DNA of 64,000 nucleotides from Klebsiella phage K64-1. Position 1 is the first letter of the stretch; the number at the start of each line of letters is the position of its first letter. The stretch lies in sequence record AB897757.1. One strand, given 5' to 3'. The translations under genes and the position numbers were made by a program. The notes beneath the pieces are model-generated. The model did no database searches. It was given only the letters and a program-made list of their open reading frames with translations, and was not told the DNA's origin. Positions 9,205 to 53,000 of this stretch are shown one piece after another.

Positions 9205-9696
9205 ATGTATACTGTCATTTTTGTATCACAGCCATATAATAATGAAGATGATTATTCAAAAAGTACAGATGGTTCTATGACAATCAAGAATTCAAATTCC
9301 AAATTGGAAACAAATAAGATTATCAATGAATTGATCAATGATTATTATCATAAAGATAATAAAAACACAGCATTAAACCGTCTTGATTTTGGTGATTTTG
9401 GGCTTGTTGTATTACTGGATGGTTGTGTACTACAAGAATTTAACATGAATAATATTGATTACAGTGATTTAACATCACCAGTTAAAAGTACTGATTATTT
9501 TGACATTAAATCAATTGATAATAAAGTTTCAAAGAACATTAGTAATATTAACAAATTTGCTCATGATTTCAAACTTGAAGAAGTTAATGCCTTCAGAAAG
9601 TTGAAAACTATGTATCAGGAGATTGAAATGGAGAAACATGAACGTAGACAACTTAGTATTTTATTAGAAAAATATCCAGATATGGGTGGTAGATAA
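9205..9696 (+). CDS. hypothetical protein
   Basis: The ATG at 9205 (MYTVIFVSQ) sits 2 nt after the upstream stop, in the same frame as the track ORF 9157..9696. Confidence 0.45.
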   Translation: MYTVIFVSQPYNNEDDYSKSTDGSMTIKNSNSKLETNKIINELINDYYHKDNKNTALNRLDFGDFGLVVLLDGCVLQEFNMNNIDYSDLTSPVKSTDYFDIKSIDNKVSKNISNINKFAHDFKLEEVNAFRKLKTMYQEIEMEKHERRQLSILLEKYPDMGGR

Positions 9697-9795
9697 TGGC
9701 ATTGCGTTCAATAAAGAAATATAGTGCAACAACAAAAATAATCAAAAAAGATGGTTATGATTTAGTACTGAAACCTGAATATCAATATATTAAAA

Positions 9796-10023
9796 ATGCT
9801 ATCTTTGAAATGCCAATATGGTGCTAAAAGAAGAAAAATCATTCTTGATATGTTAAGAGAAGGTGTTGAATTTAAAGTTAATGGTATGCATGATATCCAA
9901 ACCAAAAATGATCCAGATATTAAACGATTGTTGAAGTACAAGAAAATAGAGATGTTTAATGTGAGAAGTGGTTCATGGTCAGATCGTAGTAAACATACAT
10001 ACTTGAGGATTAAAAATGGATGA
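9796..10023 (+). CDS. hypothetical small basic protein
   Basis: 75-aa ORF. Small unlisted ORFs (about 9696-9833 and about 10017-10187) flank it. Confidence 0.3.
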   Translation: MLSLKCQYGAKRRKIILDMLREGVEFKVNGMHDIQTKNDPDIKRLLKYKKIEMFNVRSGSWSDRSKHTYLRIKNG

Positions 10024-10197: not shown

Positions 10198-10773
10198 ATG
10201 AGTTTGATTTATACTTTCGCGGTGATGGCCGCAGGGAAAAGTACACAATTATTACAAAATGCATATAATCACAGTAAAAATGGATTAAAAGTACTGTATT
10301 ATACAAGTTCACTGGATAACAGATATGGTGTGGGTAAAATAACATCCAGAATTGGTATTAATGCAAATGCTGAGGTGATTCCAAAAGATGATCTTTCAGT
10401 ACTGCAAAATATCATCGAACTGTTGAAGAAAGACGACTACGTTGCTATTTTTGTTGATGAGTGTCAATTTTTGAATTCAAAACAGGTTGACTTTTTGAGT
10501 GATATCGTTGATAATTACGAAATAGACATTTATTGCTACGGCATTAAAACTGACTTTGAAGGTAAGTTGTTTGAAGGTAGCAAACGATTAATAGAAATTG
10601 CTGATTCCGTTAAAGAACTGGAAAATTTATGTGAAAATCATAAATGTAAAAACTTAGCTATTATGAATGCTCGTATAGTCGATAGTACTGAACAAGTGCT
10701 GATCGGCGGTTCTGAAGCATACAAAAGTTTATGTAGAAAGTGTTATAAAAATCATATTTCTAAAAGAGGTTAA
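10198..10773 (+). CDS. tk: thymidine kinase
   Basis: P-loop FAVMAAGKST (deoxythymidine-kinase-type Walker A). C-terminal Cys cluster (C-x2-C ... C-x2-C zinc ribbon) and ~190-aa length, as in T4/E. coli Tdk. Confidence 0.88.
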   Translation: MSLIYTFAVMAAGKSTQLLQNAYNHSKNGLKVLYYTSSLDNRYGVGKITSRIGINANAEVIPKDDLSVLQNIIELLKKDDYVAIFVDECQFLNSKQVDFLSDIVDNYEIDIYCYGIKTDFEGKLFEGSKRLIEIADSVKELENLCENHKCKNLAIMNARIVDSTEQVLIGGSEAYKSLCRKCYKNHISKRG

Positions 10774-10777
10774 TGCA

Positions 10778-11005
10778 ATGAAAATCATTAAAAATATTTT
10801 CACTCGCGTTGGGGAAGGTATTGTTGAATCTTTTTCTTTTATGTTTGGCACAGCCTGTAATTTAATTGCAGTACTGTGGTTTTCTTTGGCTTTACATTTT
10901 GTTCCAGTGTGGTTTATTGCTACAGTTATAATTGTGATTCTGTTAGTGGTAATTTATTTTACATATAAAGATGAACTCGATTCAATTAAAGAATCCGATG
11001 ATTAA
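10778..11005 (+). CDS. small membrane protein (two predicted TM helices)
   Basis: 75-aa ORF with two hydrophobic segments (FGTACNLIAVLWFSLALHFV and WFIATVIIVILLVVIYF). Confidence 0.45.
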   Translation: MKIIKNIFTRVGEGIVESFSFMFGTACNLIAVLWFSLALHFVPVWFIATVIIVILLVVIYFTYKDELDSIKESDD

Positions 11006-11053
11006 TAACAAAAACTTCTCCTTTTGGGGAAGTTTTATTTTTAAGGTACTAAT

Positions 11054-11518
11054 ATGTTAATTGCTTATTTTGTATTAATGCTCTTTACTTTAGTTATTGT
11101 AGTACTGGATGGCTCTTATATTGGTTTATTCGGTAAAACTATCCAGAACTATCGTATCGCAGGAGCAGTAAATGATTCAGAATCAAGACGTGTATCATAT
11201 CTATGTGCGAGAGCATTAAATCATGAAATTGATGTTAAAATAATCGAAGATAAACATGAATCTTATCTGGTATTCAAAGATGAATTAGTATGTCTTGATA
11301 TTACAGACCGATTGAGATGGACGTTCGGTAATAGAATGAAGATGAACAGTGTAACACAGGAAACTTTTATTAAAAAATGTGATAACGGAAGCAATAATTT
11401 GTCTATTAGTACCAAAAAAGATATTGAAGAAGTTATTCAGTACTGTAAAAATAATAATCTAATTGATTCTTATAAGAGTTACGTGTCAATTAGTGATGAC
11501 CATTGGTGGTTTGAATGA
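11054..11518 (+). CDS. hypothetical protein with N-terminal TM segment
   Basis: 154-aa ORF with a hydrophobic N-terminus. Confidence 0.45.
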   Translation: MLIAYFVLMLFTLVIVVLDGSYIGLFGKTIQNYRIAGAVNDSESRRVSYLCARALNHEIDVKIIEDKHESYLVFKDELVCLDITDRLRWTFGNRMKMNSVTQETFIKKCDNGSNNLSISTKKDIEEVIQYCKNNNLIDSYKSYVSISDDHWWFE

Positions 11519-11931
11519 GAGTACGTAAACACAAATTAAAACACTATAACAAAATTATCAAAAAATATTATTTAATTGATGATGATTTTATACGTAAAAT
11601 GTATCGTTCACTACATACCAGAGTATACCCCGACTGTGTATTGAATGATAATAAAAAATACTACAATCCTGGTAAATCCAAGTACAAGAAAAAAGTAAAA
11701 AAAGAAAAATTTAAAACTAAGAATTCTTTTGAAAAATTTATTCCAATGAGTAAAATATATGCATGGATACCAATCACTTATTACAATCCAGTCAAAAGAA
11801 GTAGAGTAAAAGATATATCCAATGGTTATATAATGTGCAGCCGAGTTGACCTGAATGAAATTCTTGGTACTGAATACGATGAAATGGATTTCCAAAATAT
11901 GAATTTAATTTCATATTTTTCAGAGTGGTGA
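11515..11931 (+). CDS. hypothetical basic protein
   Basis: 138-aa ORF, Lys/Arg-rich, with a 4-nt overlap with the upstream gene. Confidence 0.4.
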   Translation: MRVRKHKLKHYNKIIKKYYLIDDDFIRKMYRSLHTRVYPDCVLNDNKKYYNPGKSKYKKKVKKEKFKTKNSFEKFIPMSKIYAWIPITYYNPVKRSRVKDISNGYIMCSRVDLNEILGTEYDEMDFQNMNLISYFSEW

Positions 11932-11969
11932 TTTAATTTTTTTGGATATTTTTTATTAGGTGTGATATA

Positions 11970-12311
11970 ATGTATACAAATAAAGCACAAGTTGACACAA
12001 TGTACTGGAATATTCATATTGCTGGGGATTTAGCAGCAGCGGAACGTTTTTGTACTGAATATGCATTTCAAAAAGGTTGGTGTACTCAGATTTATCCATG
12101 CAAGTACATTTATACTGGTGGTCAAGAGTCTGGTATCGTGGCTCGTATTATTTCTTATCCTCGTTTTGTGAAGAGTTTTGACATTCAGAACGATGAAGTT
12201 ATTGATTTTGCCAAGAAATTAGCAGAACGTCTTTGTCAGAAAAGTTTTACAATTGAAAATAAAGATACCAGTACTTATTACGAAAGTGATAATCCACTAC
12301 ATGGAAAATAA
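11970..12311 (+). CDS. hypothetical protein
   Basis: 113-aa ORF. Confidence 0.45.
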   Translation: MYTNKAQVDTMYWNIHIAGDLAAAERFCTEYAFQKGWCTQIYPCKYIYTGGQESGIVARIISYPRFVKSFDIQNDEVIDFAKKLAERLCQKSFTIENKDTSTYYESDNPLHGK

Positions 12312-12791
12312 ATGAAAGCTAAAATTACTTATACGTATGAATTTGATCCATCAGAATCTGAGTTTTGGTCACATGAAACTGAACAAGATATGCTTAATGT
12401 ATTAACTAGTAATGCTGAAGCTGGATTTCATAGAGTTCGTTTGAATCATGAATATCAACATAAAGTTTCTGATTTTAGTTATTCTATAAAACATGCTAAA
12501 AATACTTTTGATATAATTATTGAAAGTGAGTATCCGATTCATCGTTGTGAAGAATTTCTTGAAGATTTCAGTGATGATTGTTTTGAAGATCTTATGTCAC
12601 AATTTTCTGTGTATTATTCAAAACATAACGTTGAGATTAAAAATTGGATAGAAATACCTACTAAACCAGGAAAATGTTCTCACATTTATCAACACTTGCA
12701 ATTTATGGCAGTTGGTGATAAAATACAAGAATTGAAGAAATGTGAAAAGTGTGAAGAAGTCTTTACATTTGACGTTAAAAAAGGAAAATAG
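12312..12791 (+). CDS. hypothetical protein
   Basis: 159-aa ORF starting 1 nt after the upstream stop. C-terminal CxxC...CxxC pattern (CSH...CEKCEE). Confidence 0.45.
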   Translation: MKAKITYTYEFDPSESEFWSHETEQDMLNVLTSNAEAGFHRVRLNHEYQHKVSDFSYSIKHAKNTFDIIIESEYPIHRCEEFLEDFSDDCFEDLMSQFSVYYSKHNVEIKNWIEIPTKPGKCSHIYQHLQFMAVGDKIQELKKCEKCEEVFTFDVKKGK

Positions 12792-12928
12792 ATGAAAGGA
12801 TTACGAAATTTTACATATGCTACGTACATTGCAATACGTACTAGTTACGAAATGAACCCAGTACTGACTACTGCTCTTGGAACAGTTACGGTACTTTTTG
12901 TTTTGAGTATATTTGGAGTTATTTAATA

Positions 12929-13135
12929 ATGTCTGTGAAAATCAATGCTGATATTTACTGTAGTGGTGCACCGAACTATTTTATTTTTGCAGTAAGTACA
13001 TCTTATGATAGTAAAGGTGATTCTTATACTTTGATTAATAATACACATTGGGTACGTACAAGTAACCCCATTGATATTTCTGAATTATCAAACTATTATA
13101 GCATTGGAAAAGACAGCATTTTTGTAAACAATTGA
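12929..13135 (+). CDS. hypothetical protein
   Basis: 68-aa ORF. Confidence 0.35.
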   Translation: MSVKINADIYCSGAPNYFIFAVSTSYDSKGDSYTLINNTHWVRTSNPIDISELSNYYSIGKDSIFVNN

Positions 13136-13145
13136 GGAATATTAC

Positions 13146-13553
13146 GTGATTTCATTGGAAGGTACATTGCAATATGATCCGCCAAGGACTATTAAAATCA
13201 ATGAACCTTATTGGTTAGTACTAAACCTACCAGATGAAATTATTAAGTACTACCAATGGTTTGTTCGTAAAGAATTATTCATTGATATTAAAGATCCTCC
13301 ACACAGTGCTCATGTGAGCATAGTTCGTGGTGAAGTTCCTCCTAATATTGATATGTGGAAAAAATATGATGGGATGGAATTACATTTCGAATATTATCCA
13401 TATATTACAATTAAAAAGGATGAGAAAAATCCAGGAAATTTTTTCTTTATTAACTTTTATTCTGATGAAATATTGAGCATTAGGGAAGAACTGGGATTAT
13501 ATTCCAAATATTCCGAGTGGCATTTTACGATTGGTAGAACACACTACGACTAA
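13146..13553 (+). CDS. 2H phosphoesterase superfamily protein (LigT/CPDase/Acb1-like)
   Basis: Two H-x-[ST]-x motifs with the expected spacing, HVSIVRG and HFTIGRT, in a ~135-aa protein. The start is GTG (AGGAA Shine-Dalgarno). Confidence 0.55.
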   Translation: MISLEGTLQYDPPRTIKINEPYWLVLNLPDEIIKYYQWFVRKELFIDIKDPPHSAHVSIVRGEVPPNIDMWKKYDGMELHFEYYPYITIKKDEKNPGNFFFINFYSDEILSIREELGLYSKYSEWHFTIGRTHYD

Positions 13554-13610
13554 ATATAATTTGACATTAAATGAAATCAGTATTAAAATACTGAGATTGT
13601 TAAGTCCATA

Positions 13611-13653
13611 GTGGCTTGATGCGGAAAAGCCACTTTCTGTATCAAGCCTTTTA
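13611..13653 (+). terminator. rho-independent terminator with alternative hairpins
   Basis: GGCTTGAT...ATCAAGCC stem plus TTTT. An overlapping alternative stem is AGTGGCTT/AAGCCACT. Confidence 0.55.
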
Positions 13654-13680
13654 TTAAACAAAAAAGGAGAAATACAGAAC

Positions 13681-14583
13681 ATGGCGAAACATAACAGAAA
13701 AACCATCAAAAAGCTTATTCTTTTAAGTGGTTTAACTGTTCTTGCTGCCGCTACATTTGAATTTAACGCTTTTTCTAATAACGATCACTTATCATCGCAA
13801 AAGGTAAGTATACAGGAACCGCATATTCAGCAAATTCAAAAGCAAGTACTTAACATTACAGTACTTAACAGCGAGAATGAAAAATACACGGTACAGGCTG
13901 GTGATACATATAAAAGTATTTCCGTTAAATATAAGCCAAAAAACGTGAAACTATCCGAGTATATCACATTAATAAAAAATATTAATTTGAATTCTCCTAT
14001 TAGAACTTCTCAAGTTATCCTCTTACCTAATAAAGAGGATTTGCAGAGCATTATGACTGATGAGGTTATAAAATTCGATTATACAAACCCAAATTTTATT
14101 TCTCACTTAAAAGAACAAGAGGGATCAAAAAAATATCAAAGTACTACTAAACGTAGATTGTTAAATGGTACTTATGGTTATTCTTACAAAAACTCTAAGT
14201 TCTATCCATACAGAGATAGCTATGGTAATTACACCATAGGCTTCGGTCATTATATTTCTCGTAATGAATCAGTTGCAATGAAGTACAAAAATGGCATCAG
14301 TACTAAGGAAGCACATGATTTATTACTTGAAGATCTTAAAGTTACTGATTTACAATTAACCAAATTATTACAAGAAAAGAATGTTAAAAATTTGAGTCCA
14401 TACCAAGAGAGGGTATTATTTGAAATGACATTTATGTTAGGTTCAGATAAATTGTCAAAATTCCATACAATGTGGAGTGGTATTAAAACTGGAAATCATA
14501 AAAAGGTTAAACAGGCGATTGTCAATTCATTGTGGTATCGTCAGGTACCAAATCGTGCTGAATTGCTCGTAAACAATCTTTAA
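13681..14583 (+). CDS. endolysin: signal peptide + LysM + T4-lysozyme-like (GH24) muramidase
   Basis: N-terminal signal or anchor (KKLILLSGLTVLAAATF). LysM motif YTVQAGDTYKSIS. The GH24 core has YTIGFGH (compare T4 lysozyme YTIGIGH) and a C-terminal WYRQVPNRAE (compare T4 WYNQTPNRAK). Confidence 0.82.
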   Translation: MAKHNRKTIKKLILLSGLTVLAAATFEFNAFSNNDHLSSQKVSIQEPHIQQIQKQVLNITVLNSENEKYTVQAGDTYKSISVKYKPKNVKLSEYITLIKNINLNSPIRTSQVILLPNKEDLQSIMTDEVIKFDYTNPNFISHLKEQEGSKKYQSTTKRRLLNGTYGYSYKNSKFYPYRDSYGNYTIGFGHYISRNESVAMKYKNGISTKEAHDLLLEDLKVTDLQLTKLLQEKNVKNLSPYQERVLFEMTFMLGSDKLSKFHTMWSGIKTGNHKKVKQAIVNSLWYRQVPNRAELLVNNL

Positions 14584-14598
14584 AACATTTTTTTGGCA

Positions 14599-14628
14599 TT
14601 GACAACATTACAGATTGTGTGTTATAAT
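14599..14628 (+). promoter_or_regulatory. sigma70-like promoter (TTGACA-18-TATAAT)
   Basis: TTGACA at 14599-14604 and TATAAT at 14623-14628. A GGGAC...GTCCC plus T5 hairpin (14632-14653) follows directly. Confidence 0.4.
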
Positions 14629-14631
14629 AAA

Positions 14632-14653
14632 GGGACTTTAAGAGTCCCTTTTT
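14632..14653 (+). terminator. rho-independent terminator / 5' stem-loop
   Basis: GGGAC-tttaaga-GTCCC hairpin followed by TTTTT. Confidence 0.5.
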
Positions 14654-14668
14654 CTATTTGGAAAATGT

Positions 14669-15121
14669 ATGCAAGAAACAATCAAATCTATTTCATTAAA
14701 AAATGAATTACAATCTGTACTTGATATTAAAGATATTCATTACTATAGAAAAAGAGATAAAAATAATAAATTTAGTGCAGGATGGTTTAAAATAACAAAA
14801 AATACAAGTATTTGTCAGGCACGTTGTGGTGTGAATTATGCTTCGTATCTTTGTATTGAAGTACGTTATCCAAACAGAGATGAATTAAAATTTAAGTTAT
14901 ACAATGATGCAATTGTATTGGAAGTGAGAAACGGGTTTATTAATATTTTTACGTTTAAACATGTACAACATTGTAGATTTACACCTGATTTATCTTATGA
15001 TATGTACCATCAATATATGTTCATTGAAGACCATTGGAATTTATCATATGATGAGTATTCAGTACTGAACAAGATTTATAATAAATGTAAAGATCATTTA
15101 TTGAAAGAAGAAAAAAGATGA
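14669..15121 (+). CDS. hypothetical protein
   Basis: 150-aa ORF. Confidence 0.45.
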   Translation: MQETIKSISLKNELQSVLDIKDIHYYRKRDKNNKFSAGWFKITKNTSICQARCGVNYASYLCIEVRYPNRDELKFKLYNDAIVLEVRNGFINIFTFKHVQHCRFTPDLSYDMYHQYMFIEDHWNLSYDEYSVLNKIYNKCKDHLLKEEKR

Positions 15122-15132
15122 AGGGTTAAAAT

Positions 15133-16239
15133 ATGAAAAAATATCTGGTAGGTGGTTATTGTCGTGACCGTCTTATGGGGTTAAAACCAAAAGACAAAGA
15201 TTATGTTATTGTTGGTGCTAATGAATCAGATATAAAATATCTGGAAAGTGCTGGATACAAACAGGTTGGTGTTGATTTCCCTGTGTATTTGAGTCCAAAG
15301 GGTAATGAATTTGCATTAGCTCGTGTAGAAAGAAAAACAGGGAATGGTTATGGTGGTTTTACCGTTGAAACAAAAGGTGTCACTCTTGAAGAAGACTTAT
15401 CTCGTCGAGATTTGACAATTAATAGTATTGCATATGAACCACTAATGGGGATCCACATTGACCCGTTTAAAGGAAGAGATGATATTAAAAATAAAATCTT
15501 GCGTCATACAAGTTCAGCTTTTAGTGAAGATCCACTCCGTGTTCTAAGGCTTGCTCGTTTTGCTACACGTTTTCAGGATTTTACTATTCATTCTGATACT
15601 GAACAAATGGTAATTGATATGGTACAAAGTGGTGAAACTGATTACTTGGTACCTGACCGAGTTTATGTTGAATTTAAAAAAGCATTTTCAGAAGAAAAAC
15701 CAGGTCGATTTATTAAAGTATTAAATGATATTGGATATATTCCCAAAGTACTACCTAAGTTTAAATGTACTAAAAAGAACATCGAATTGATTGATTATAT
15801 TTCGATGAATTGTACTGAACAATGGAAAGATTATTTCATTTGGAGTGTATTACTACAGGATGAAATTACTAATATTGAATCTAAAATCCGTGTACCACAA
15901 AAATACATTAAATTTAGTTCTTTTGTAGACCGTATGAAGGAAAATATTAAAACGTTTCGTAAAAAATCAGTAGAGGAAATGTGTGATATTCTCTTTGATA
16001 TGAATATCAAAAATAACGGTGGTGAAGAGTTTTTATATAAAGTACTGGAGTATTTTATTCTACGAAAAGAAATTGATGTAGACTTAGAAGACTTGATTAT
16101 TAAAGTATATGACAGATATGATAGTACTGTCATTCCTGATATTCAGGAAATGGTAAAAACTGGGGAACTTGATCCAAAAGACATTCGTGATTTTGTTCAA
16201 AATACACGCTATCATGAAATTAAAAAAATGTTTATCTGA
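15133..16239 (+). CDS. cca: tRNA nucleotidyltransferase (CCA-adding enzyme / poly(A) polymerase family, class II)
   Basis: Head-domain signature GGYCRDRLMGLKPKDKDYVIVGA (class II NTase GGxVRD...DxD) followed by RRDLTINSIAY. Its ~370-aa length matches short CCA enzymes. Confidence 0.82.
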   Translation: MKKYLVGGYCRDRLMGLKPKDKDYVIVGANESDIKYLESAGYKQVGVDFPVYLSPKGNEFALARVERKTGNGYGGFTVETKGVTLEEDLSRRDLTINSIAYEPLMGIHIDPFKGRDDIKNKILRHTSSAFSEDPLRVLRLARFATRFQDFTIHSDTEQMVIDMVQSGETDYLVPDRVYVEFKKAFSEEKPGRFIKVLNDIGYIPKVLPKFKCTKKNIELIDYISMNCTEQWKDYFIWSVLLQDEITNIESKIRVPQKYIKFSSFVDRMKENIKTFRKKSVEEMCDILFDMNIKNNGGEEFLYKVLEYFILRKEIDVDLEDLIIKVYDRYDSTVIPDIQEMVKTGELDPKDIRDFVQNTRYHEIKKMFI

Positions 16240-16299
16240 ACGTAAGACCAAAAAAACGATATAATAAATACCACAACAGCAAGCAAAAAGGAACGTCTT

Positions 16300-16734
16300 A
16301 TGCTTTATAGTTGTGGTATTATATTTTACCAAAATGGACAAATATTATTGGGTCATTGTACTGGTCAAAAACATTGGGATTTACCAAAAGGTAAAGCTGA
16401 AAACAATGAATCATTTGTTGAAGCAGCCATAAGAGAATGCAAAGAAGAAACTGGATTTATTGTAAAAGAAAATGAATTAATTCTATTAGGAGAAGTATCC
16501 TACCGTAAAGGAAAAAGATTAGTATTATTTTTTTGTACGTCAAAAATTAAACCAAATCCAGATGAGCTTCGATGTAGTACTACATATGTTAACAAACATG
16601 GTAAGAGAAGACCTGATATAGATTCGTACAAATATGTAGATCTAAAAGATTGTCCAAAATATTTAACACAAAGAATGTCTAAAAGTATTTTAAAATGTAC
16701 AGAGATTTATAAGAAGAAAAGGGAATCGAAATGA
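16300..16734 (+). CDS. Nudix hydrolase
   Basis: Nudix box GKAENNESFVEAAIRECKEETGF matches G-x5-E-x7-REuxEExGu. Confidence 0.8.
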   Translation: MLYSCGIIFYQNGQILLGHCTGQKHWDLPKGKAENNESFVEAAIRECKEETGFIVKENELILLGEVSYRKGKRLVLFFCTSKIKPNPDELRCSTTYVNKHGKRRPDIDSYKYVDLKDCPKYLTQRMSKSILKCTEIYKKKRESK

Positions 16735-16979
16735 AAGTAACTATCTATGGTCGTAGTAGTGGTTGTAAGTGGTGCGATACCGCCAAAGCAGTATGTGAAA
16801 CCAATGGTTTTGATATGACATTTATTGATATCGATAGTGAAGGTATTGATGCCAATAAACTTGCTGAAATCTGTGGTGAACCAGTACGCTCAGTTCCACA
16901 AATTTTTGTGAATGGTGAATTCGTGAAAGGTGGTTGTACTGGTTTTGTTGAAGGTCTGAAAGAAGGTAAATTCATTTGA
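16731..16979 (+). CDS. nrdC: glutaredoxin (NrdC-like)
   Basis: Thioredoxin-fold CxxC active site (SGCKWCDTAK), VPQIFVNGEFVKGGCTG C-terminal motif, 82 aa. Confidence 0.8.
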   Translation: MKVTIYGRSSGCKWCDTAKAVCETNGFDMTFIDIDSEGIDANKLAEICGEPVRSVPQIFVNGEFVKGGCTGFVEGLKEGKFI

Positions 16980-17206
16980 ATATTGAAGAAATCTCTAAAC
17001 GTGCAAAAGAAGTTGCAGAACAATTAGGAACTGATTTCGTTATTCCAGATTATAATGCATCTAAAGAAAAAGCCGAACGTAATATTAAAATGCGTATGGA
17101 ATACTTGTCACGCAAAGAAGAATACGATAATGTAATTGAAATGATTTTTGAAAAATACAGTCCAGAAGTCATTAATTGTTTTATTAATGATATCAAGAAA
17201 TCCTAA
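16976..17206 (+). CDS. hypothetical protein
   Basis: 76-aa ORF with a 4-nt overlap. Confidence 0.4.
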   Translation: MNIEEISKRAKEVAEQLGTDFVIPDYNASKEKAERNIKMRMEYLSRKEEYDNVIEMIFEKYSPEVINCFINDIKKS

Positions 17207-17254
17207 ATAATATTGAAGGAACATGATTCCTTTGTACAATAAGAGGATATTACT

Positions 17255-17494
17255 ATGCTTAGTTTCCGTGAAAAATTAGCTAAAGGTATTTTTGAACACT
17301 CTACTCCTGCTACTTTTATTCCTAAAAAATCAAAATTCTTAGGAACAATTACAGAAGATGGTTATTGTGATTTTGAAGCACCAGAGAGTGATTGGTATCT
17401 TACTAAGGATTCAACACGAAGTAATAGACTTTATAAAAGTACACTAGCACGACAACATCGTAAAGAAGTGAAACGTATACGTTTCAAAGAATAA
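17255..17494 (+). CDS. hypothetical protein
   Basis: 79-aa ORF with an AAGAGGA Shine-Dalgarno, followed by a terminator. Confidence 0.45.
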   Translation: MLSFREKLAKGIFEHSTPATFIPKKSKFLGTITEDGYCDFEAPESDWYLTKDSTRSNRLYKSTLARQHRKEVKRIRFKE

Positions 17495-17502
17495 ATCAAA
17501 AA

Positions 17503-17535
17503 AGGACTTCAAATATTTGAAGTCCTTTTCTTTTC
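17503..17535 (+). terminator. rho-independent terminator
   Basis: GGACTTCAAATATTTGAAGTCC hairpin followed by TTTTCTTTT. Confidence 0.7.
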
Positions 17536-17545
17536 AGGAAAATAT

Positions 17546-18025
17546 ATGATTCAGATACACAATGGTAATCTGTTTGAAAAATACATCACACTAAACACCC
17601 CACCAGACGCTCTACACATCATTGTACACGGTTGTAACGCACAGGGTAAGATGGGATCAGGGTTTGCTAAAGAACTACGCACACGCTTTCCAGTGGCTTA
17701 TACGGAGTATTCAGAACACATATCAATGATTGGTACGGATAATGTATTAGGTACTGTATCATATGTTGCCATTGATGAAAAGTTGATTATTGCAAATGCC
17801 ATTACACAGCAGTACTATGGATATGATTCCAAAAAATATGTAAGTTATGATGCAGTTGACACTGCTTTTAAAAATTTGAATGCATTTTGTGATTGTGATA
17901 AAATAATACATGTGCATTTCCCTAAGATTGGAGCCGATTTAGGCGGAGGTAACTGGAACGTTATCAAGGAAATCATTGATGGTTCACTCATCAATGCACA
18001 CAAACATTTATATATTCTAAACTAA
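17546..18025 (+). CDS. macro domain protein (ADP-ribose / Appr-1''-p processing family)
   Basis: The motif HGCNAQGKMGSGFAKEL resembles the macro-domain diphosphate-binding loop (NAAN..L.GGGGV.GAI). It is ~160 aa and lies downstream of the Nudix and CCA genes. Confidence 0.6.
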   Translation: MIQIHNGNLFEKYITLNTPPDALHIIVHGCNAQGKMGSGFAKELRTRFPVAYTEYSEHISMIGTDNVLGTVSYVAIDEKLIIANAITQQYYGYDSKKYVSYDAVDTAFKNLNAFCDCDKIIHVHFPKIGADLGGGNWNVIKEIIDGSLINAHKHLYILN

Positions 18026-18041
18026 AAAAGGACTTGACACT

Positions 18042-18356
18042 ATGACTAAAAATGTTAAACTATTCCATGTAAATTCAGTTGGTCCAGTACTGGCAATCAT
18101 CCAACAAGAAACCGCCGAGGCTATTGTTGTGAATGACCCACTACAATTGGGTACAGATGAAAAAGGTGAACTAATGATGATGGATTATCTTGATATGATT
18201 ACTGAACACAAAGCAGTTGTATTTTACAAAAACAACATCATTAGTGTGAGTACTCCAGTACCACAACTGGCTAAACTTTATGTTGAAGCAGTCAAGGGTG
18301 AAGAAGATTCTGCTCCTAAGCTAATCGTCCCTGACAATAAAATTATCACACGTTAA
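18042..18356 (+). CDS. hypothetical protein
   Basis: 104-aa ORF. Confidence 0.45.
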   Translation: MTKNVKLFHVNSVGPVLAIIQQETAEAIVVNDPLQLGTDEKGELMMMDYLDMITEHKAVVFYKNNIISVSTPVPQLAKLYVEAVKGEEDSAPKLIVPDNKIITR

Positions 18357-18376
18357 TATACTAAAAAGGTACAGTT

Positions 18377-18757
18377 ATGTCCAATAAAGAAGCAGTAAAC
18401 ACTATTCAAGCTATTCTGATTATGGCAAATGATCAACCAAACCCAAAAGAACTTGTTATGGCTGGCATGACTGTACTACACCAGTACAACCCAGCTTCAC
18501 CTAATTTTGTAGGTCAAGCAGAAGCAGAAGAATTTAAAAAGCATTGGGACTCGTGGATTAAAAATAATATGGAACAAGTGGTATACGTATGTAACTCAGA
18601 AGAAGACATGGAACAAATCGAGTACCAGGCTAATATGGAATCTATTCCTCTTAGTATTTTCGGTAATGGTGAAAAATGTCTTGTACTTGGACCATTCAGT
18701 GCTGAAGATATTGAACGAGTGACACATGAACTCGTTGAAGGAAGTATTCAGTACTAA
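18377..18757 (+). CDS. hypothetical protein
   Basis: 126-aa ORF. Confidence 0.45.
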   Translation: MSNKEAVNTIQAILIMANDQPNPKELVMAGMTVLHQYNPASPNFVGQAEAEEFKKHWDSWIKNNMEQVVYVCNSEEDMEQIEYQANMESIPLSIFGNGEKCLVLGPFSAEDIERVTHELVEGSIQY

Positions 18758-18814
18758 TACAATTATAATATAGCACCTCTAAATAATGTATATAACATTA
18801 AAATGAGGTGCTAT

Positions 18815-19603
18815 ATGTACGATTATATGGCTGGCAATCCAGATGCTCCAAATTTTGATCACAGAGAGAAAATTAAAGATACTATTACACAAATGCTTGG
18901 TGCAGGTGCTGTAAATGTAGAACTCACTGATGGTCAACTTGAAATTGCAATAGATAATGCAGTGAGTAATTACAGAGCATGGAGTTCTGCATCAAAAGAA
19001 GAAGCATTTTTACATTTAAAAATGTTCGATTCACAGAGTGTTTATGTACTTCCTACTGAAGTTGAAATAGTACATAAAATTTATCGCTACGGAAATGGAT
19101 ATTTAAGTTCTGGACAAGGTTCAGCAACTGACCCTTTTAGTTTAGCATTCACCAATAGTTATGTCCTCCAATCTGCACGAAATGCAGGTGGTTATGATTT
19201 AGCTACTTATGATTTTTCATTCCAATATCAAGAACTTGTCGCCAGAATGTTTGGAAGAGATATTATTTTTCAATTCAATCCAGTAACAAAGAAATTAGTA
19301 CTTGATCGTGATATTCGAGGAAATGAAGAAGTATTAATTCATGTTTTTCAAAACTTACCAGAACCGATGTTATTCCAGAAACAACAATCGTATCCATGGT
19401 TGCGTGATTGGGCTTTATCAGAAGCCATGATCATGTTAGGTAGAAACCGTAATAAATTTGCCACTCTACCCGGTCCACAAGGTACATTTTCAATGGATGG
19501 ACAACAGATGCTCGCAGATGGTCAACAATTGCAACAAGAATTAAAAGAACGATTAAGAAAATACGAAGATGGTTCTCAACCACTTGGTATGATTATTGGA
19601 TAA
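18815..19603 (+). CDS. hypothetical protein (possible virion/tail-associated)
   Basis: The ATG at 18815 (MYDYMAG) has a GAGG Shine-Dalgarno 6 nt upstream. The track start at 18803 would lack a Shine-Dalgarno. It sits upstream of the tail module. Confidence 0.45.
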   Translation: MYDYMAGNPDAPNFDHREKIKDTITQMLGAGAVNVELTDGQLEIAIDNAVSNYRAWSSASKEEAFLHLKMFDSQSVYVLPTEVEIVHKIYRYGNGYLSSGQGSATDPFSLAFTNSYVLQSARNAGGYDLATYDFSFQYQELVARMFGRDIIFQFNPVTKKLVLDRDIRGNEEVLIHVFQNLPEPMLFQKQQSYPWLRDWALSEAMIMLGRNRNKFATLPGPQGTFSMDGQQMLADGQQLQQELKERLRKYEDGSQPLGMIIG

Positions 19604-19669: not shown

Positions 19670-21673
19670 ATGACAAATGCAGAATTAAAAGAATTATTAA
19701 ATTGTAAGAACATAAATTCATGGCCTTACTTGTATAAACATGATATTGAAATACGTGATATTCTTTCAATATATAATATAATCCCAAAAACCAATAAAGA
19801 TATTTTTAAATTATTTTACCTATTCATGAATTCATATTCTGAAGAACCAAAAGCTTATTGTGGAAAACCAGCAGTGTATGTTAATTATAAGAATGGGTTT
19901 TATAAAGTATGTTCTGATTTTAATGCAAAAGATAAAAATTCTTGTAAAATTTGTACTGAAATGCGTTACAAATCAAGGACTGAAAATACAAAGAAAAGTA
20001 ATTTGGAAAAATATGGAGTTGAAAATATTTCACAGGTTCAATCCATAAAAGATAAAAAAGAAAAAACATGTATTGAAAAATTTGGTGCAAGTACTAATTT
20101 AAAGACTAAAGAAACCAAAGACAAAATAAAAAATACCAACAGAAAGAAATTCGGTACTGATCATCCTTTGCAAAATACTGATATTTTATTAAAACAGCAA
20201 AATACAAATATAAAACGTTATGGGGTAAAATATCAAGGACAACGTGAAGAAGTAAAGAATAAGATTAAAGAAACAAATTTGAAAATTCGTGGAGTTCCTT
20301 ATGTATTACAGGATGAAAACATTAGGTCAAAGATCAAAGATACTAATATGAAAAAATATGGTGCTTCTTGTATTTTTTCAACACAATATTATAAAGAAAT
20401 AATAATTAATACTAATATTAAAAAATACAATGCATTATATCCAATGCAGAATTCTGATATTCTTAATAAAAGATGTATGACAAATAATAAATTATATGGT
20501 GGTAATTCACCAAGTTGTGATTCTTCAGTACTGAATAAAATGAAGAACACTACACTAGAAAGATATGGTGTTGAATATTATTCCCAAAGCGACGAATATA
20601 AAATTTATATTCAAGATTCATTGTATATGGATAGATATGATATAATTTCAACGAATATTGATTATAATTATATTCCTCTTTTTGATGAAGATGATTTGAT
20701 ATTCAGAACCAACATGGATTTATTACCATTTTGGTGTAATTATTGTGATGATTTATTCTATTCTAAACACAAACAAAATAATATCAAATGTAATTGTCAA
20801 ATAAAACATGGAGTATCTATTAAAGAATTAGAGTTAAGAAATTATATAGTATCGTTAATTCCAGATGAAGATATCATTTTCAATGATCGTACTATTCTTA
20901 ATGGGAAGGAACTTGACATTTATATACCTAATTTGAATTTAGCATTTGAATTTAATGGTATGTATTGGCACAGTAATAATATTATAGACAAAAATATGCA
21001 CCAAAACAAAGTACTACAATGTAAAGAACAAGGTATTAATTTAATTCATGTTTTTGAAGATGAGTGGGATTCCAAAAATGAATTAATTAAAAATCGCATT
21101 AAAAGTAAATTAAATAAATCTCCAAAAATTTATGCAAGAAAATGCACAGTTGGTAATGTCGATAATACTACATACAAAGATTTTTGTAATTTATTTCATA
21201 TTCAGGGTTACACTGAAGCAAAAATCAAAATTGGATTGTATTATGATTATGAACTGGTTGCTGTAATGTCATTTGGAGCACCGAGAAACAAAAGTGATAA
21301 AATTAAATATGAATATGAATTAATTCGTTACTGTTCAGATGGTTCAGTTATTGGTGGTGCTTCAAAAATACTCAAATATTTTGAAAAGAAATATAAACCA
21401 AAATCACTAATGTCATATGCAGATATGAACTGGAGTAATGGAAACTTATATTCAGTACTGGGATTCACTGAAGAGTCATATACCAAACCTGGGTATTTTT
21501 ATTATAACAAAGAAACCAACGAACGAATTTCCAGACAACGTTGTCAAAAACATAAACTGGTTAAATTGGGATATGATAGTAATTTAACTGAAACTACAAT
21601 CTGTTGTGATATTATTGGATATCTAAAAATTTACGATAGTGGTAATTTAAAATACGTTAAAAAATATCAATAA
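19670..21673 (+). CDS. homing-endonuclease-like protein: Zn ribbon + ~9 NUMOD3-like DNA-binding repeats + PD-(D/E)xK nuclease-like domain
   Basis: N-terminal CGKP...CSD...CKIC zinc ribbon. Nine tandem ~24-aa repeats with consensus K(K/R)YG(V/A)..P.Q....K(I)K.TN (NUMOD3-like). C-terminal ELDIYIPNLNLAFEFNGMYWHS matches restriction-endonuclease-like (Vsr/DUF559-type) folds. Confidence 0.6.
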   Translation: MTNAELKELLNCKNINSWPYLYKHDIEIRDILSIYNIIPKTNKDIFKLFYLFMNSYSEEPKAYCGKPAVYVNYKNGFYKVCSDFNAKDKNSCKICTEMRYKSRTENTKKSNLEKYGVENISQVQSIKDKKEKTCIEKFGASTNLKTKETKDKIKNTNRKKFGTDHPLQNTDILLKQQNTNIKRYGVKYQGQREEVKNKIKETNLKIRGVPYVLQDENIRSKIKDTNMKKYGASCIFSTQYYKEIIINTNIKKYNALYPMQNSDILNKRCMTNNKLYGGNSPSCDSSVLNKMKNTTLERYGVEYYSQSDEYKIYIQDSLYMDRYDIISTNIDYNYIPLFDEDDLIFRTNMDLLPFWCNYCDDLFYSKHKQNNIKCNCQIKHGVSIKELELRNYIVSLIPDEDIIFNDRTILNGKELDIYIPNLNLAFEFNGMYWHSNNIIDKNMHQNKVLQCKEQGINLIHVFEDEWDSKNELIKNRIKSKLNKSPKIYARKCTVGNVDNTTYKDFCNLFHIQGYTEAKIKIGLYYDYELVAVMSFGAPRNKSDKIKYEYELIRYCSDGSVIGGASKILKYFEKKYKPKSLMSYADMNWSNGNLYSVLGFTEESYTKPGYFYYNKETNERISRQRCQKHKLVKLGYDSNLTETTICCDIIGYLKIYDSGNLKYVKKYQ

Positions 21674-44288: not shown

Positions 44289-44762
44289 TTAAAAATATGG
44301 TTCACTATTTAAACTGTTGACAAACACAGTCCCTTTCTTTATACTTTCATACAGAGATTTAAAATCCTTCATTAAATTTTCATTAAGTAGTGTGCTTTTA
44401 GCACCCGGATGTAATCTTAGACTTTTATACGAACCAATTTCTACCCAAGAATATCCAGAGCTTTCGTGATTCAGTACAGGAATAAATTCATTTTCAACTA
44501 CTATAACAAATGAATAATATTTGAATTTACCATTTTTAGTACTGAATACATCAAAAGGTATAATATCTTCAATATCGGGAACAGAATTACCTAATTCTTC
44601 TTGTATTTCTCTGTACAATGCTTGTAATGGTGTTTCATTATTTTGAAGTTTTCCTCCTACAAATCCCCAGTTATTACTATAGGTAGCACTTTCCGAACGT
44701 AAATTGAGCATCATTCTTCCTGTATTCTTGGATAGGAATATAGCACCAACTGCTTCATTCAT
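44289..44762 (-). CDS. Nudix hydrolase (second copy)
   Basis: Nudix box GGKLQNNETPLQALYREIQEELG. Confidence 0.75.
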   Translation of the reverse strand: MNEAVGAIFLSKNTGRMMLNLRSESATYSNNWGFVGGKLQNNETPLQALYREIQEELGNSVPDIEDIIPFDVFSTKNGKFKYYSFVIVVENEFIPVLNHESSGYSWVEIGSYKSLRLHPGAKSTLLNENLMKDFKSLYESIKKGTVFVNSLNSEPYF

Positions 44763-50022: not shown

Positions 50023-53000
50023 TTATATAACATTTAACAAGTTATTGAGTACCAAACCGTCAATTTTCAATGAATTAGCATACACACTTACATCAATTGG
50101 TTTGTAATAATTTTTATAAACACTAAAATTAAGTTCAACACCAAGATTGATACCAGTGAATGTATATGTTTCACCTTTAGCAAAATAGTGTTCAGCACTA
50201 TACATATCTGAACGAAGGATATTGTTATTATTTCGCACATGAACTTTTTCATATCCAAGTACGATAATATCATCATAACTAGTACTACCAGTAATGATAT
50301 TATCCTTAACACTATATGTACCAACTGAAACTGGCTCCACCACATAAGTGGTATTTTCATTCTCAACTTTAGTAACACTGGTTACTGTACAAGTTGTATC
50401 ACCGATATACACTTTATCTGTTAAATCATATGAGTAAGTCCATCTTACACCATCGAACACAGGTTTAATATCATCGACGTCATATTCATATACAGTAAAC
50501 TCTAAACTTTCTGGAGTTCCAATACGAACCAGTTCATCTAATGTACCAACACCGGTATTTGGCATGAAATATCCACTATCAACCACACCATCAGAAGTTT
50601 CAACTAACTCATTAGAGATTAGCCAAACATCCAAATCTAATGGATCTATTTCATCCGTGTAATCACCATTATTCAAAGAAATATCATAGAATACATCATA
50701 GTCCATAACATCAACTCTGTAATTTCTTATACTTTCATACAACAAATCACCATTGTTATTGAACTCATGGTCTGCAAAACTTCTAATACGAATAACATTT
50801 ATACTTGTTTTTGTATAAGGTTCACCAGTATTATTAGTGGTTAAATTATTAAACTCAAGTTTATTTCCATTTAAATCAACCAAAGAATAAACTCCGTTGT
50901 TAAGCTCAACTTCAAACATAATAGGTCGATCATTCTCTTTGATTTTATCAGTACTGAGAATAAGTTCATGAGTAAAGTTCTGGTATCTGTAATAATCATC
51001 ACCATCTGGGGTAAACACCATAACTTTATCACCACTATTGAGATTACTATTTTTCATCAAGAATTCAGTACTGCTTATAATACTATCAATAGTACTGATA
51101 TAATTATAAGAGTCTTTCTTAATTACTGTGCGGTTTACATAGTTTTGTACCAGACTATATGGAGGAATGCTCACAATAGCTTCTGTACGCTTGTATGGAT
51201 TGAGAACAACAAAACCCTCTATCTGGAATCGACTAAAGTCTTTAATCTGCTGTAGAGATGTAGAATCGTTACTATAACCATCTACTGTAAAACGCATTTG
51301 TGAAATAGCATTAGCACTTGGGTTCAACTCGGAAATATCAATGAAAACTGATTCAGTCAAATCACCTTCGTAGCTCAGTGCGACAGTTTTATATTGAGAT
51401 TCCAAACCTAAATTATCATAAGCATTCATATCATTATAATACTTCTGCCCCTTGATTCCCTCAAGTACAACCATGTAGTCACTGTACATTGGATTATTAT
51501 CATCCATTTCCAGATCATCCATATCAATCTCAACTGCTGTAACTACTGAACCATCAGTAATGAAAAGATCTTCCATATATTCATCAATGCTACGATCATC
51601 AGGAATACTAACATAACTACCGTTAATATTGAATCTAATATATTTTCTCGGGATCATTACAAATGCCTGAATATCCATTGATTTACGATTACTATTCAGA
51701 ATATCCTCTGCATATGCATAAGGATCATCACTGTCTTTATCAAACGTGTTACGAATAGCAGTTAGTACATGGATAGCATCTTTGTAATAACGACCCTGAG
51801 AATCAATATCATATTTGAAACAATAGATACCGTATTCAATTTCCATTACGCTTCTGATGGTTTCTTCATCAGCATCTGGTGTTTCTTCCAAAATAAGTTC
51901 TCTATAATGGGCGAATAAATCCTCACTAATTTCAAAATATCCCATGTTGAAGTCAGAACTTGAACTAAAACCAAAAGGTAATCTCGTATTCGGATTATCA
52001 TTGTAAATTTCACCACTCAGACCACAACCAATGGTATCATGGATTACATCTGAACTCATTGAACTATAAAGTTTTAATCTATTACTCAATGTATTATATT
52101 GTGAATACATTCTAACATCTTGTGTTAAGTTAGAAGTACTATACAATTCAGAAGTGATTCTGTCTAAATCAGAAGTGAAACTTTCAGTTCTTTCAGCATC
52201 ATCAACGTTCAATTTATACCATGCATTGATAGCATCAACTAAATCCAGACTTGTATCAAAATCAGAATATAGTTCAAACATATCAACAGAAATCTGAGTA
52301 TAAATTTCATCTACCTCAACAACTGGTAGTGTATACTTGAAACGCTGGATTTCATAGTACTGTACATTATCATCAGAATTACTTACATACTTAGCATTGT
52401 TCTCTTCCAGACTTGTAACATCATATAAATCACTATCAGGCTGGCATTGAACATTATCAAATTGCATTGAGATATCAATTTCCTGGAATTTTCTATCTGG
52501 GTAAACGAAGTCGTTTGGTATTGAACCAACTACCACCCATTGTCCAGTACTTTCATTATATTCAGCATATTCATGATCCCAAATATCAGATTGTGTTTTA
52601 ACCCAAATTGTACCGTTATATTCATAACCATTTGGATCTAAATCATTACAAACACCATAAACATAATCAGTGTCGGATGTTTTCTGTTCAATTTGAGAAC
52701 GAATTTTAGTCCTGTACGGTTTAACTTCATTGAAATATTCAATAATCTGATTAATCAATTCGTCATTAGTGTAATTTTGTTTAAGTGATTGTTCTAACCC
52801 AACAATATAAATGTATGAAGTTTTGAATACCCAATCAACCACACCCTGTTCAACGTGTACGTATTTAACCATGTCAAATACAATATTACTTTGAGCTAAA
52901 TCGAATGTATTTTTGATTAAATCTAATGCACTTCTTACATTAATTTCCTTGTTGCTTAAAGAACCATCACTGTTATAAACTTCATACCCATCATATAAAG

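Follow-up and report, generated by a model that had tools for sequence, protein, structure and literature searches.

The 64,000-nucleotide stretch of Klebsiella phage K64-1 analyzed here (sequence record AB897757.1; the whole stretch is called the window below) carries, between positions 13,146 and 18,025, genes for a small 2H phosphoesterase, a CCA-adding tRNA nucleotidyltransferase, a Nudix hydrolase, a glutaredoxin, and a macrodomain protein. An earlier note on this DNA had read the 2H, macrodomain, and Nudix enzymes as a single route from ADP-ribose 1'',2''-cyclic phosphate (Appr>p) through ADP-ribose to AMP, with immune-messenger degradation, reversal of DNA ADP-ribosylation, and tRNA repair as alternatives. 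We favor, with a confidence somewhat above even, the view that these genes belong to a mosaic accessory region in which functions for tRNA and translation maintenance stand beside functions for conflicts over ADP-ribose and nicotinamide adenine dinucleotide (NAD), acting independently and not as one pathway. The conceptual novelty is little, key homologues having already been studied in T4, and a network of 2H, macrodomain, Nudix, CCA, and PTH2 proteins in jumbo phages has already been published (PMC7824862, PMC9503650). What is new, though modest, is that an unannotated family of minimal 2H proteins, restricted to jumbo phages, has been identified at the level of the fold and found to be linked to RNA ligase genes.

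The gene at 13146-13553 (plus strand) encodes a minimal, stand-alone protein of 135 amino acids, which is labeled hypothetical in phage RaK2 (ORF028) and unknown in phrog_12204. The two HxT/S motifs on which the earlier note had based its 2H assignment are present as HVSI (residues 56 to 59) and HFTI (residues 126 to 129). Across an alignment of 90 family sequences, H56, W71, and H126 were invariant and G62, R113, G117, and T128 nearly so, and the catalytic His, Ser, and Thr residues of the window protein are intact. Two such motifs alone are not significant; the case for a 2H enzyme is made by the invariance of the histidines together with the fold. The protein has the bilobed 2H fold, whose absence the earlier note had named as grounds for abandoning the assignment, and among solved structures, Acb1 and coronavirus ns2 come closest to it. 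Against the Pfam 2H-SAK family (PF22547), the window protein scored below threshold (17.6 bits versus a gathering cutoff of 27; E = 0.0047), and 75 of the 90 relatives matched at E < 0.01, the best at 1e-8. Searches of PDB sequences with either the protein or the 90-member profile returned nothing meaningful, and a search of NCBIfam with the protein gave no match. The 2H fold, the HxS/T dyad, and an association with RNA ligase genes are features in common with 2H-SAK and with the LigT/ThpR RNA 2',3'-cyclic phosphodiesterases, and the 135-residue protein is assignable to a 2H-SAK-related family of 2H phosphoesterases.

An exhaustive profile search placed at least 886 representative clusters (at 50% identity) in this family. 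Its 75 GenBank records, every one of those listed being a phage of 310 to 635 kb, carry the label hypothetical in nearly all listed cases, with one gene named viral L protein. The bacterial genome collection yielded a single match, in a gammaproteobacterial metagenome-assembled genome (L036, 7911-8327; 63% G+C, 455-kb contig). One metagenomic family member (P0028, 335 amino acids) is a fusion of 2H-SAK with YqeY, which is related to the tail domain of GatB; this fusion hints at a tRNA substrate.

The structural neighbors of the protein bring in a different reading, in which it would be an immune-evasion nuclease of the Acb1 or ns2 kind, acting on the cyclic or 2'-5'-linked messengers of the cyclic oligonucleotide-based antiphage signaling system (CBASS), of the pyrimidine cyclase-based antiphage resistance system (Pycsar), or of type III CRISPR. 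The earlier note's suggestion of an Acb1-type enzyme held at the level of the fold, the 135-residue protein being structurally similar to solved Acb1, but failed at the level of sequence. The Acb1 profile PF23474, which T4 57B (Acb1) as a control matched at 2.7e-60, matched neither the window protein nor any of its 90 relatives; when aligned with T4 Acb1 by hhalign, the family profile reached a probability of 0.8%; and the genome position differs from that of T4 57B. Moreover, both this 2H gene and a separately named Acb1 occur in Yersinia phage fHe-Yen9-04, which belongs to the RaK2 supergroup. By sequence, the protein is outside the Acb1 family. In favor of immune evasion, the family is, apart from the one bacterial match, restricted to jumbo phages, its members lie beside genes of anti-defense types (NADAR and macrodomain), and the 2H gene evolves fastest of its stretch.

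This last point comes from comparison with close relatives. A 5.4-kb region was 98.6 to 99.3% identical to its counterparts in seven Alcyoneusvirus jumbo phages that infect Klebsiella, among them RaK2, Muenster, RCIP0023, and KP13-7 (window positions are approximately RaK2 coordinates minus 22); the window phage is itself an Alcyoneusvirus of the RaK2/Muenster type. Among these approximately 99% identical phages, the 2H gene is a divergence hot spot: it differs from the Muenster gene by 22 nucleotides and 11 amino acids, with a ratio of nonsynonymous to synonymous divergence (dN/dS) of about 0.3, whereas the tk, CCA, NudE, macrodomain, and PTH2 genes show only synonymous differences (dN/dS of about 0; comparison range, 10198-19603). 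The replacements are concentrated at residues 77 to 114 and spare the catalytic motifs. Faster evolution among near-identical phages would fit an enzyme that degrades immune signals. The elevated dN would also suit another explanation, namely, that the co-location means nothing and that a hyperplastic accessory region carries these genes as unrelated passengers, with the 2H gene possibly drifting; but the catalytic residues are intact and invariant, and the dN/dS ratio is still well below 1. In the same comparison, a 159-residue ORF (open reading frame) of no assigned function at 12312-12791 showed five nonsynonymous and no synonymous differences from Muenster, a pattern that may reflect positive selection or a small-sample effect.

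Related loci were retrieved with a 12-sequence 2H alignment as the query. The order 2H-lysozyme-CCA-NudE-glutaredoxin-macrodomain-PTH2-gp13-deoxynucleoside monophosphate (dNMP) kinase-sheath was kept in all 12 RaK2-supergroup loci, down to 47% identity of the 2H protein (range, 47 to 90%), which speaks against meaningless passengers. Near the distant 2H homologues of other giant phages (26 to 39% identity), CCA, Nudix, and macrodomain genes never occurred within 10 kb. Three separate lineages, however, have an Rnl2-type RNA ligase gene (PF09414) within approximately 1.5 to 6 kb of the 2H gene, namely, the RaK2 supergroup (L006, L009 to L011, L013, L015, and L016) and two distant ones (L018/L019/L021/L022 and L030). 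Most supergroup loci have genes for Rnl2 and a DUF2828/DUF7788 protein immediately upstream of 2H (for example, L006 at 6707-9807, L009, L011, and L016), and a DUF2828/DUF7788 gene adjoins the 2H gene upstream in distant L030 as well. The DUF2828 protein matched no PDB sequence, and a literature search on DUF2828/TROVE was uninformative. A PseT-like kinase is encoded within 6 kb of the 2H homologue in L027. Because the partner that recurs across lineages is an RNA ligase, a role in RNA end healing is favored for the 2H enzyme, and the same recurrence counts against the immune-evasion nuclease, which we regard as unlikely. That the family is a new kind of immune-signal-degrading anti-defense enzyme, distinct from Acb1, we hold to be rather unlikely.

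Other neighbors vary among these loci. A NADAR gene lies directly downstream of the distant 2H homologues in L017 (10745-11335) and L020 (1694-2320); NADAR is a domain of T4 AdfN, an anti-DarTG1 factor. A gene for an S30AE ribosome hibernation factor follows the lysozyme gene in most supergroup relatives, and a YqeY gene is part of the L004 block; both are absent from the window phage.

The earlier note's tRNA-repair alternative gained support from the proximity of 2H genes to RNA ligase genes and from three tRNA-related genes enriched within one 17-kb stretch of the window. The first of these, at 1839-3095 (plus strand) and thus 10 kb upstream of the set under study, encodes an RNA-ligase-associated Pol-beta (RlaP-family) nucleotidyltransferase (Pfam PF10127; E = 2.7e-14, above cutoff); it is 30% identical to T4 NrdC.11 (BLASTP; E = 2e-12) and is labeled just nucleotidyltransferase in RaK2. 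The second, at 15133-16239 (plus strand), is the class II CCA-adding enzyme that the earlier note had recognized, with the Pfam PolyA_pol and RNA-binding domains (PF01743 and PF12627) and the motifs GGYCRD, DKD, RRDLTIN, and EDPLRVLRLARF (head-domain motifs A, B, and D are present). In its class II head and neck, the protein strongly resembles the multifunctional CCA enzyme of Escherichia coli, but the HD phosphohydrolase domain of the latter is absent: the corresponding model, NF008137, matched over positions 1 to 210 of 409 only (E = 3.5e-81; 273 bits versus a cutoff of 451), and the window protein has no HD dipeptide and only four His residues. The CCA enzyme was considered as a source of cyclic phosphodiesterase activity, as the Muenster annotation would have it, and was rejected for want of an HD domain; for the same reason, the product name of CPT_Muenster_268, [quoted passage not shown] is unsupported. 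The third gene, at 18377-18757 (plus strand) just downstream of the macrodomain gene, encodes a PTH2-type peptidyl-tRNA hydrolase-like protein (Pfam PTH2; E = 5.6e-7; 30.2 bits versus a cutoff of 23), for which the Muenster record cites an HHpred match to 1XTY. The clustering of RlaP, CCA, and PTH2 genes in this stretch is a further point against a chance assembly of passengers. A search of the window for tRNA genes found none; RaK2 has five tRNAs elsewhere in its genome, together with rnlA, pseT, and a second Pth2 gene (ORF188).

The gene at 17546-18025 (plus strand) encodes a stand-alone macrodomain, as the earlier note had proposed, and the assignment survived a profile search (Pfam PF01661; 26.9 bits versus a cutoff of 22). 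The protein is 32% identical to T4 Tk.4 (BLASTP; E = 1e-12), and its family shares with Tk.4 the invariant motifs HGCN, TQ, and GxxGGGNW. Among PDB sequences, it matched BT1257, SCO6735, Poa1p, and DarG; Tk.4 matched the same set plus TARG1. The sole NCBIfam match was to the macrodomain part of DarG (E = 4.4e-8; 32.8 bits versus a cutoff of 250). Both proteins are stand-alone macrodomains of approximately 155 to 160 residues encoded in a tk-linked accessory region, although the identity is only 32% and the window gene is placed after nudE and the glutaredoxin gene, not after tk.1 to tk.3. The macrodomain belongs to the same TARG1/DarG/Poa1p-like clade as the DarG macrodomain and human TARG1 but, unlike the DarG antitoxin, lacks the DarT-binding C-terminal domain. 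Knockout of tk.4 makes T4 sensitive to DarTG2, and the gene has been renamed adfM, for anti-DarT factor (bioRxiv 10.1101/2025.11.20.689424). As judged from homology, the window gene can be annotated as an AdfM (anti-DarT2) homologue, and the earlier note's alternative of DarT-type DNA ADP-ribosylation is strengthened to that extent.

The Nudix hydrolase predicted at 16300-16734 (plus strand) was likewise borne out (Pfam E = 5.8e-14); its Nudix box, GX5EX7REUXEEXGU, is complete and occupies residues 31 to 53 (GKAENNESFVEAAIRECKEETGF). It is a homologue of T4 NudE (NudE.1), with 35% identity (BLASTP; E = 6e-19), and, as in T4, its gene lies downstream of an e-type lysozyme gene; unlike in T4, e and nudE are separated by an inserted gene, that of the CCA enzyme. 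Substrates of NudE.1 are ADP-ribose, diadenosine triphosphate (Ap3A), and flavin adenine dinucleotide (FAD) (T4 record note; bioRxiv 10.1101/2024.04.04.588121), and the enzyme also hydrolyzes NAD and decaps NAD-RNA in vitro (bioRxiv 10.1101/2024.04.04.588121). The second Nudix gene that the earlier note had placed at 44289 does exist (44289-44762; Pfam NUDIX E = 3.2e-15), but we rejected it as a member of the set: its best NCBIfam matches are MutT-type models, it is named mutT in RaK2, and it lies on the minus strand among virion genes, between the tail sheath gene and structural genes.

Outside the window, RaK2 (NC_019526) carries at 305143-311011 a cytidyltransferase gene, a nicotinamide phosphoribosyltransferase gene, and a Sir2 gene followed directly by a second NudE-like Nudix gene (at approximately 310 kb), with PhoH further downstream. 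This segment resembles an NAD-salvage and Sir2-Nudix module, in which the cytidyltransferase is questionably similar to nicotinamide mononucleotide adenylyltransferase, and it could interplay with the genes studied here.

The proximity of the macrodomain and Nudix genes has a counterpart in T4. The T4 order is nrdC.11-rI.-1-tk-tk.1-3-tk.4-...-e-nudE-...-57B (Acb1)-57A-gene 1, and the window order is RlaP-rI.-1-tk-...-2H-e-CCA-nudE-grx-tk.4-PTH2-gp13-gene 1, with rI.-1 at 7768 as a synteny landmark and the thymidine kinase gene at 10198-10773 (plus strand; annotated tk in both RaK2 and Muenster) as an anchor to the tk-tk.4 region of T4. Since the two orders correspond, the macrodomain-Nudix proximity is ancestral. 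T4 likewise has macrodomain, Nudix, and 2H enzymes encoded within 13 kb, with distinct roles there. Besides the elevated dN, the passenger explanation draws on this T4-relic synteny, on the unrelated genes that intervene (lysozyme and small ORFs of no assigned function), and on the loss of the Rnl2/DUF2828 partners in the RaK2 lineage; given the intact catalytic residues, the constraint on the 2H gene, the conserved block order, and the tRNA-related cluster, we consider it distinctly improbable.

Transcription signals also divide the set. A promoter-like site at 13561-13589 (plus strand; consensus scan), between the 2H and lysozyme genes, is followed by a terminator-like hairpin with a 15-bp stem at 13613-13648 (plus strand), 3' of the 2H gene; a perfect sigma-70 consensus (TTGACA-18-TATAAT with an extended TG) and then a terminator-like hairpin occupy 14599-14651 (plus strand), 5' of the CCA block; and a further terminator-like hairpin lies at 17498-17531, 5' of the macrodomain gene. 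All are pattern matches only, and a terminator is annotated in Muenster at the site matching 14599-14651. With hairpins and promoter-like sites between them, the 2H, Nudix, and macrodomain genes fall into different putative transcription units. Twice, at 13561-13648 and 14599-14651, an intergenic gap thus holds a strong sigma-70-like promoter with a terminator-like hairpin immediately after it.

These observations bear on the single route that the earlier note had proposed. Under that scheme, a 2'-phosphotransferase (host KptA or phage Sir2) would make Appr>p as it clears 2'-phosphates after tRNA ligation. The 2H enzyme would open this Appr>p, the macrodomain would dephosphorylate the product, and the Nudix hydrolase would then split it to AMP and ribose-5-phosphate. 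The three enzyme classes do lie within 5 kb in an order kept across the RaK2 supergroup, and they are shared with the yeast Tpt1-Cpd1-Poa1-Ysa1 route and with the NAD-ADP-ribose/RNA-repair model of the Aravind laboratory, which names these domains in jumbo phages; the scheme has been put forward explicitly for such phages (PMC7824862, PMC9503650). The macrodomain resembles yeast Poa1p, an ADP-ribose 1''-phosphate phosphatase (structures 6lfq/6lfu; E of approximately 3e-5, query residues 18 to 93 only), T4 NudE hydrolyzes ADP-ribose, and a generator could in principle be supplied, as the Aravind laboratory proposed, by host KptA (kptA is present in E. coli) or by a phage Sir2, which in RaK2 forms an adjacent pair with a Nudix gene. 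However, a single-query phmmer search with E. coli KptA, of limited sensitivity, found no KptA/Tpt1 in any ORF of the window or in any ORF of the 81% of the RaK2 genome that lies outside its segment at 200 to 266 kb (the segment being about 19%); the best match had an E value of 5. Nor does the pattern scan show an operon structure; the macrodomain-Nudix pair is T4-inherited, and its members have other demonstrated roles in T4; and the linkage to the 2H gene is confined to one clade. The proposal of a single disposal pathway does not stand up well to these results, and we judge it very improbable. In the same 81% of the RaK2 genome, the 2H-family gene and the AdfM-like macrodomain gene each occurred in one copy, and no homologues of Acb1, Rnl2, DUF2828, or NADAR were found.

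The mosaic accessory region of independently acting genes is the reading that we prefer, and it draws on folds, motifs, homologies, synteny, and gene neighborhoods, from which we infer all of the substrates. The stretch would be an early or accessory segment of a RaK2-type jumbo phage, derived from a T4-like nrdC.11-rI.-1-tk-tk.4-e-nudE region. Its tRNA and translation group would comprise the RlaP nucleotidyltransferase, the 2H enzyme, the CCA enzyme, and the PTH2 hydrolase. In this group, host anticodon nucleases or other metal-independent RNases would leave 2',3'-cyclic phosphate ends for the 2H enzyme to open, and a phage RNA ligase would then reseal the RNA ends so opened; the CCA-adding enzyme, which has no HD end-healing domain of its own, would rebuild tRNA 3' ends, and the PTH2 hydrolase would free peptidyl-tRNA. 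Independently, the AdfM-like macrodomain would strip DarT2-type ADP-ribose from phage DNA, and the NudE.1-like Nudix hydrolase would hydrolyze ADP-ribose, Ap3A, FAD, or NAD, or NAD-RNA caps.

Several points weigh against this reading. The RaK2-type phages, the window phage included, do not have the Rnl2-DUF2828 pair beside the 2H gene, and the phage's own RnlA and PseT are encoded approximately 70 kb away from it. The 2H enzyme may be redundant as an end healer, since cyclic phosphates are already dealt with by a T4-type Pnkp. The NADAR neighbors of distant 2H homologues fit an anti-defense context as well as they fit repair. For the macrodomain, the family and Tk.4 alike have an invariant Gln88 (Thr-Gln) at what we take to be Thr-Lys84 of TARG1, and Gly at Asp125; the numbering of TARG1 fits. 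By this alignment, the catalytic Lys (K84 of TARG1, K80 of DarG) is missing from the window protein. To go by these residues, the macrodomain family may have a chemistry other than that of TARG1 and DarG.

The remaining genes of the stretch stand in neither of these two groups. The ORFs that the earlier note named there were all found at their given positions on the plus strand. Between the 2H and CCA genes lies a gene for a LysM and T4-type, e-like lysozyme (13681-14583, plus strand; Pfam Phage_lysozyme E = 3.2e-8; phrog_15410), which carries the label e in RaK2. The glutaredoxin that the earlier note had identified proved to be a GrxA-family protein with the motif CKWC (16731-16979, plus strand; Pfam E = 1.1e-11; NCBIfam GrxA E = 3.7e-18, below the model cutoff). 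A 104-residue ORF after the macrodomain gene was considered as a homologue of T4 Vs and rejected. Further downstream, a homing-endonuclease-like ORF of 667 amino acids (19670-21673) lies between the gp13 and dNMP kinase genes and is not there in relatives L004 and L006.

Elsewhere in the window, which is A+T rich (approximately 31% G+C), an in-frame TGA at 55108-55110 (minus strand) results from the deletion of 15 nucleotides that eight Alcyoneusvirus records (RaK2, Muenster, and six more) retain. It splits a giant virion structural gene (RaK2 ORF070w, 3,326 amino acids) into ORFs at 55108-59988 and 50023-55011; the gene is uninterrupted in all eight deposited relatives.

Together, these results allow ORF028 of RaK2-type phages, along with its homologues, to be moved from the label hypothetical to annotation as 2H phosphoesterases. 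For RaK2-like phages, which find use against Klebsiella pneumoniae, knowledge of the anti-defense and tRNA-repair content aids the prediction of host range.

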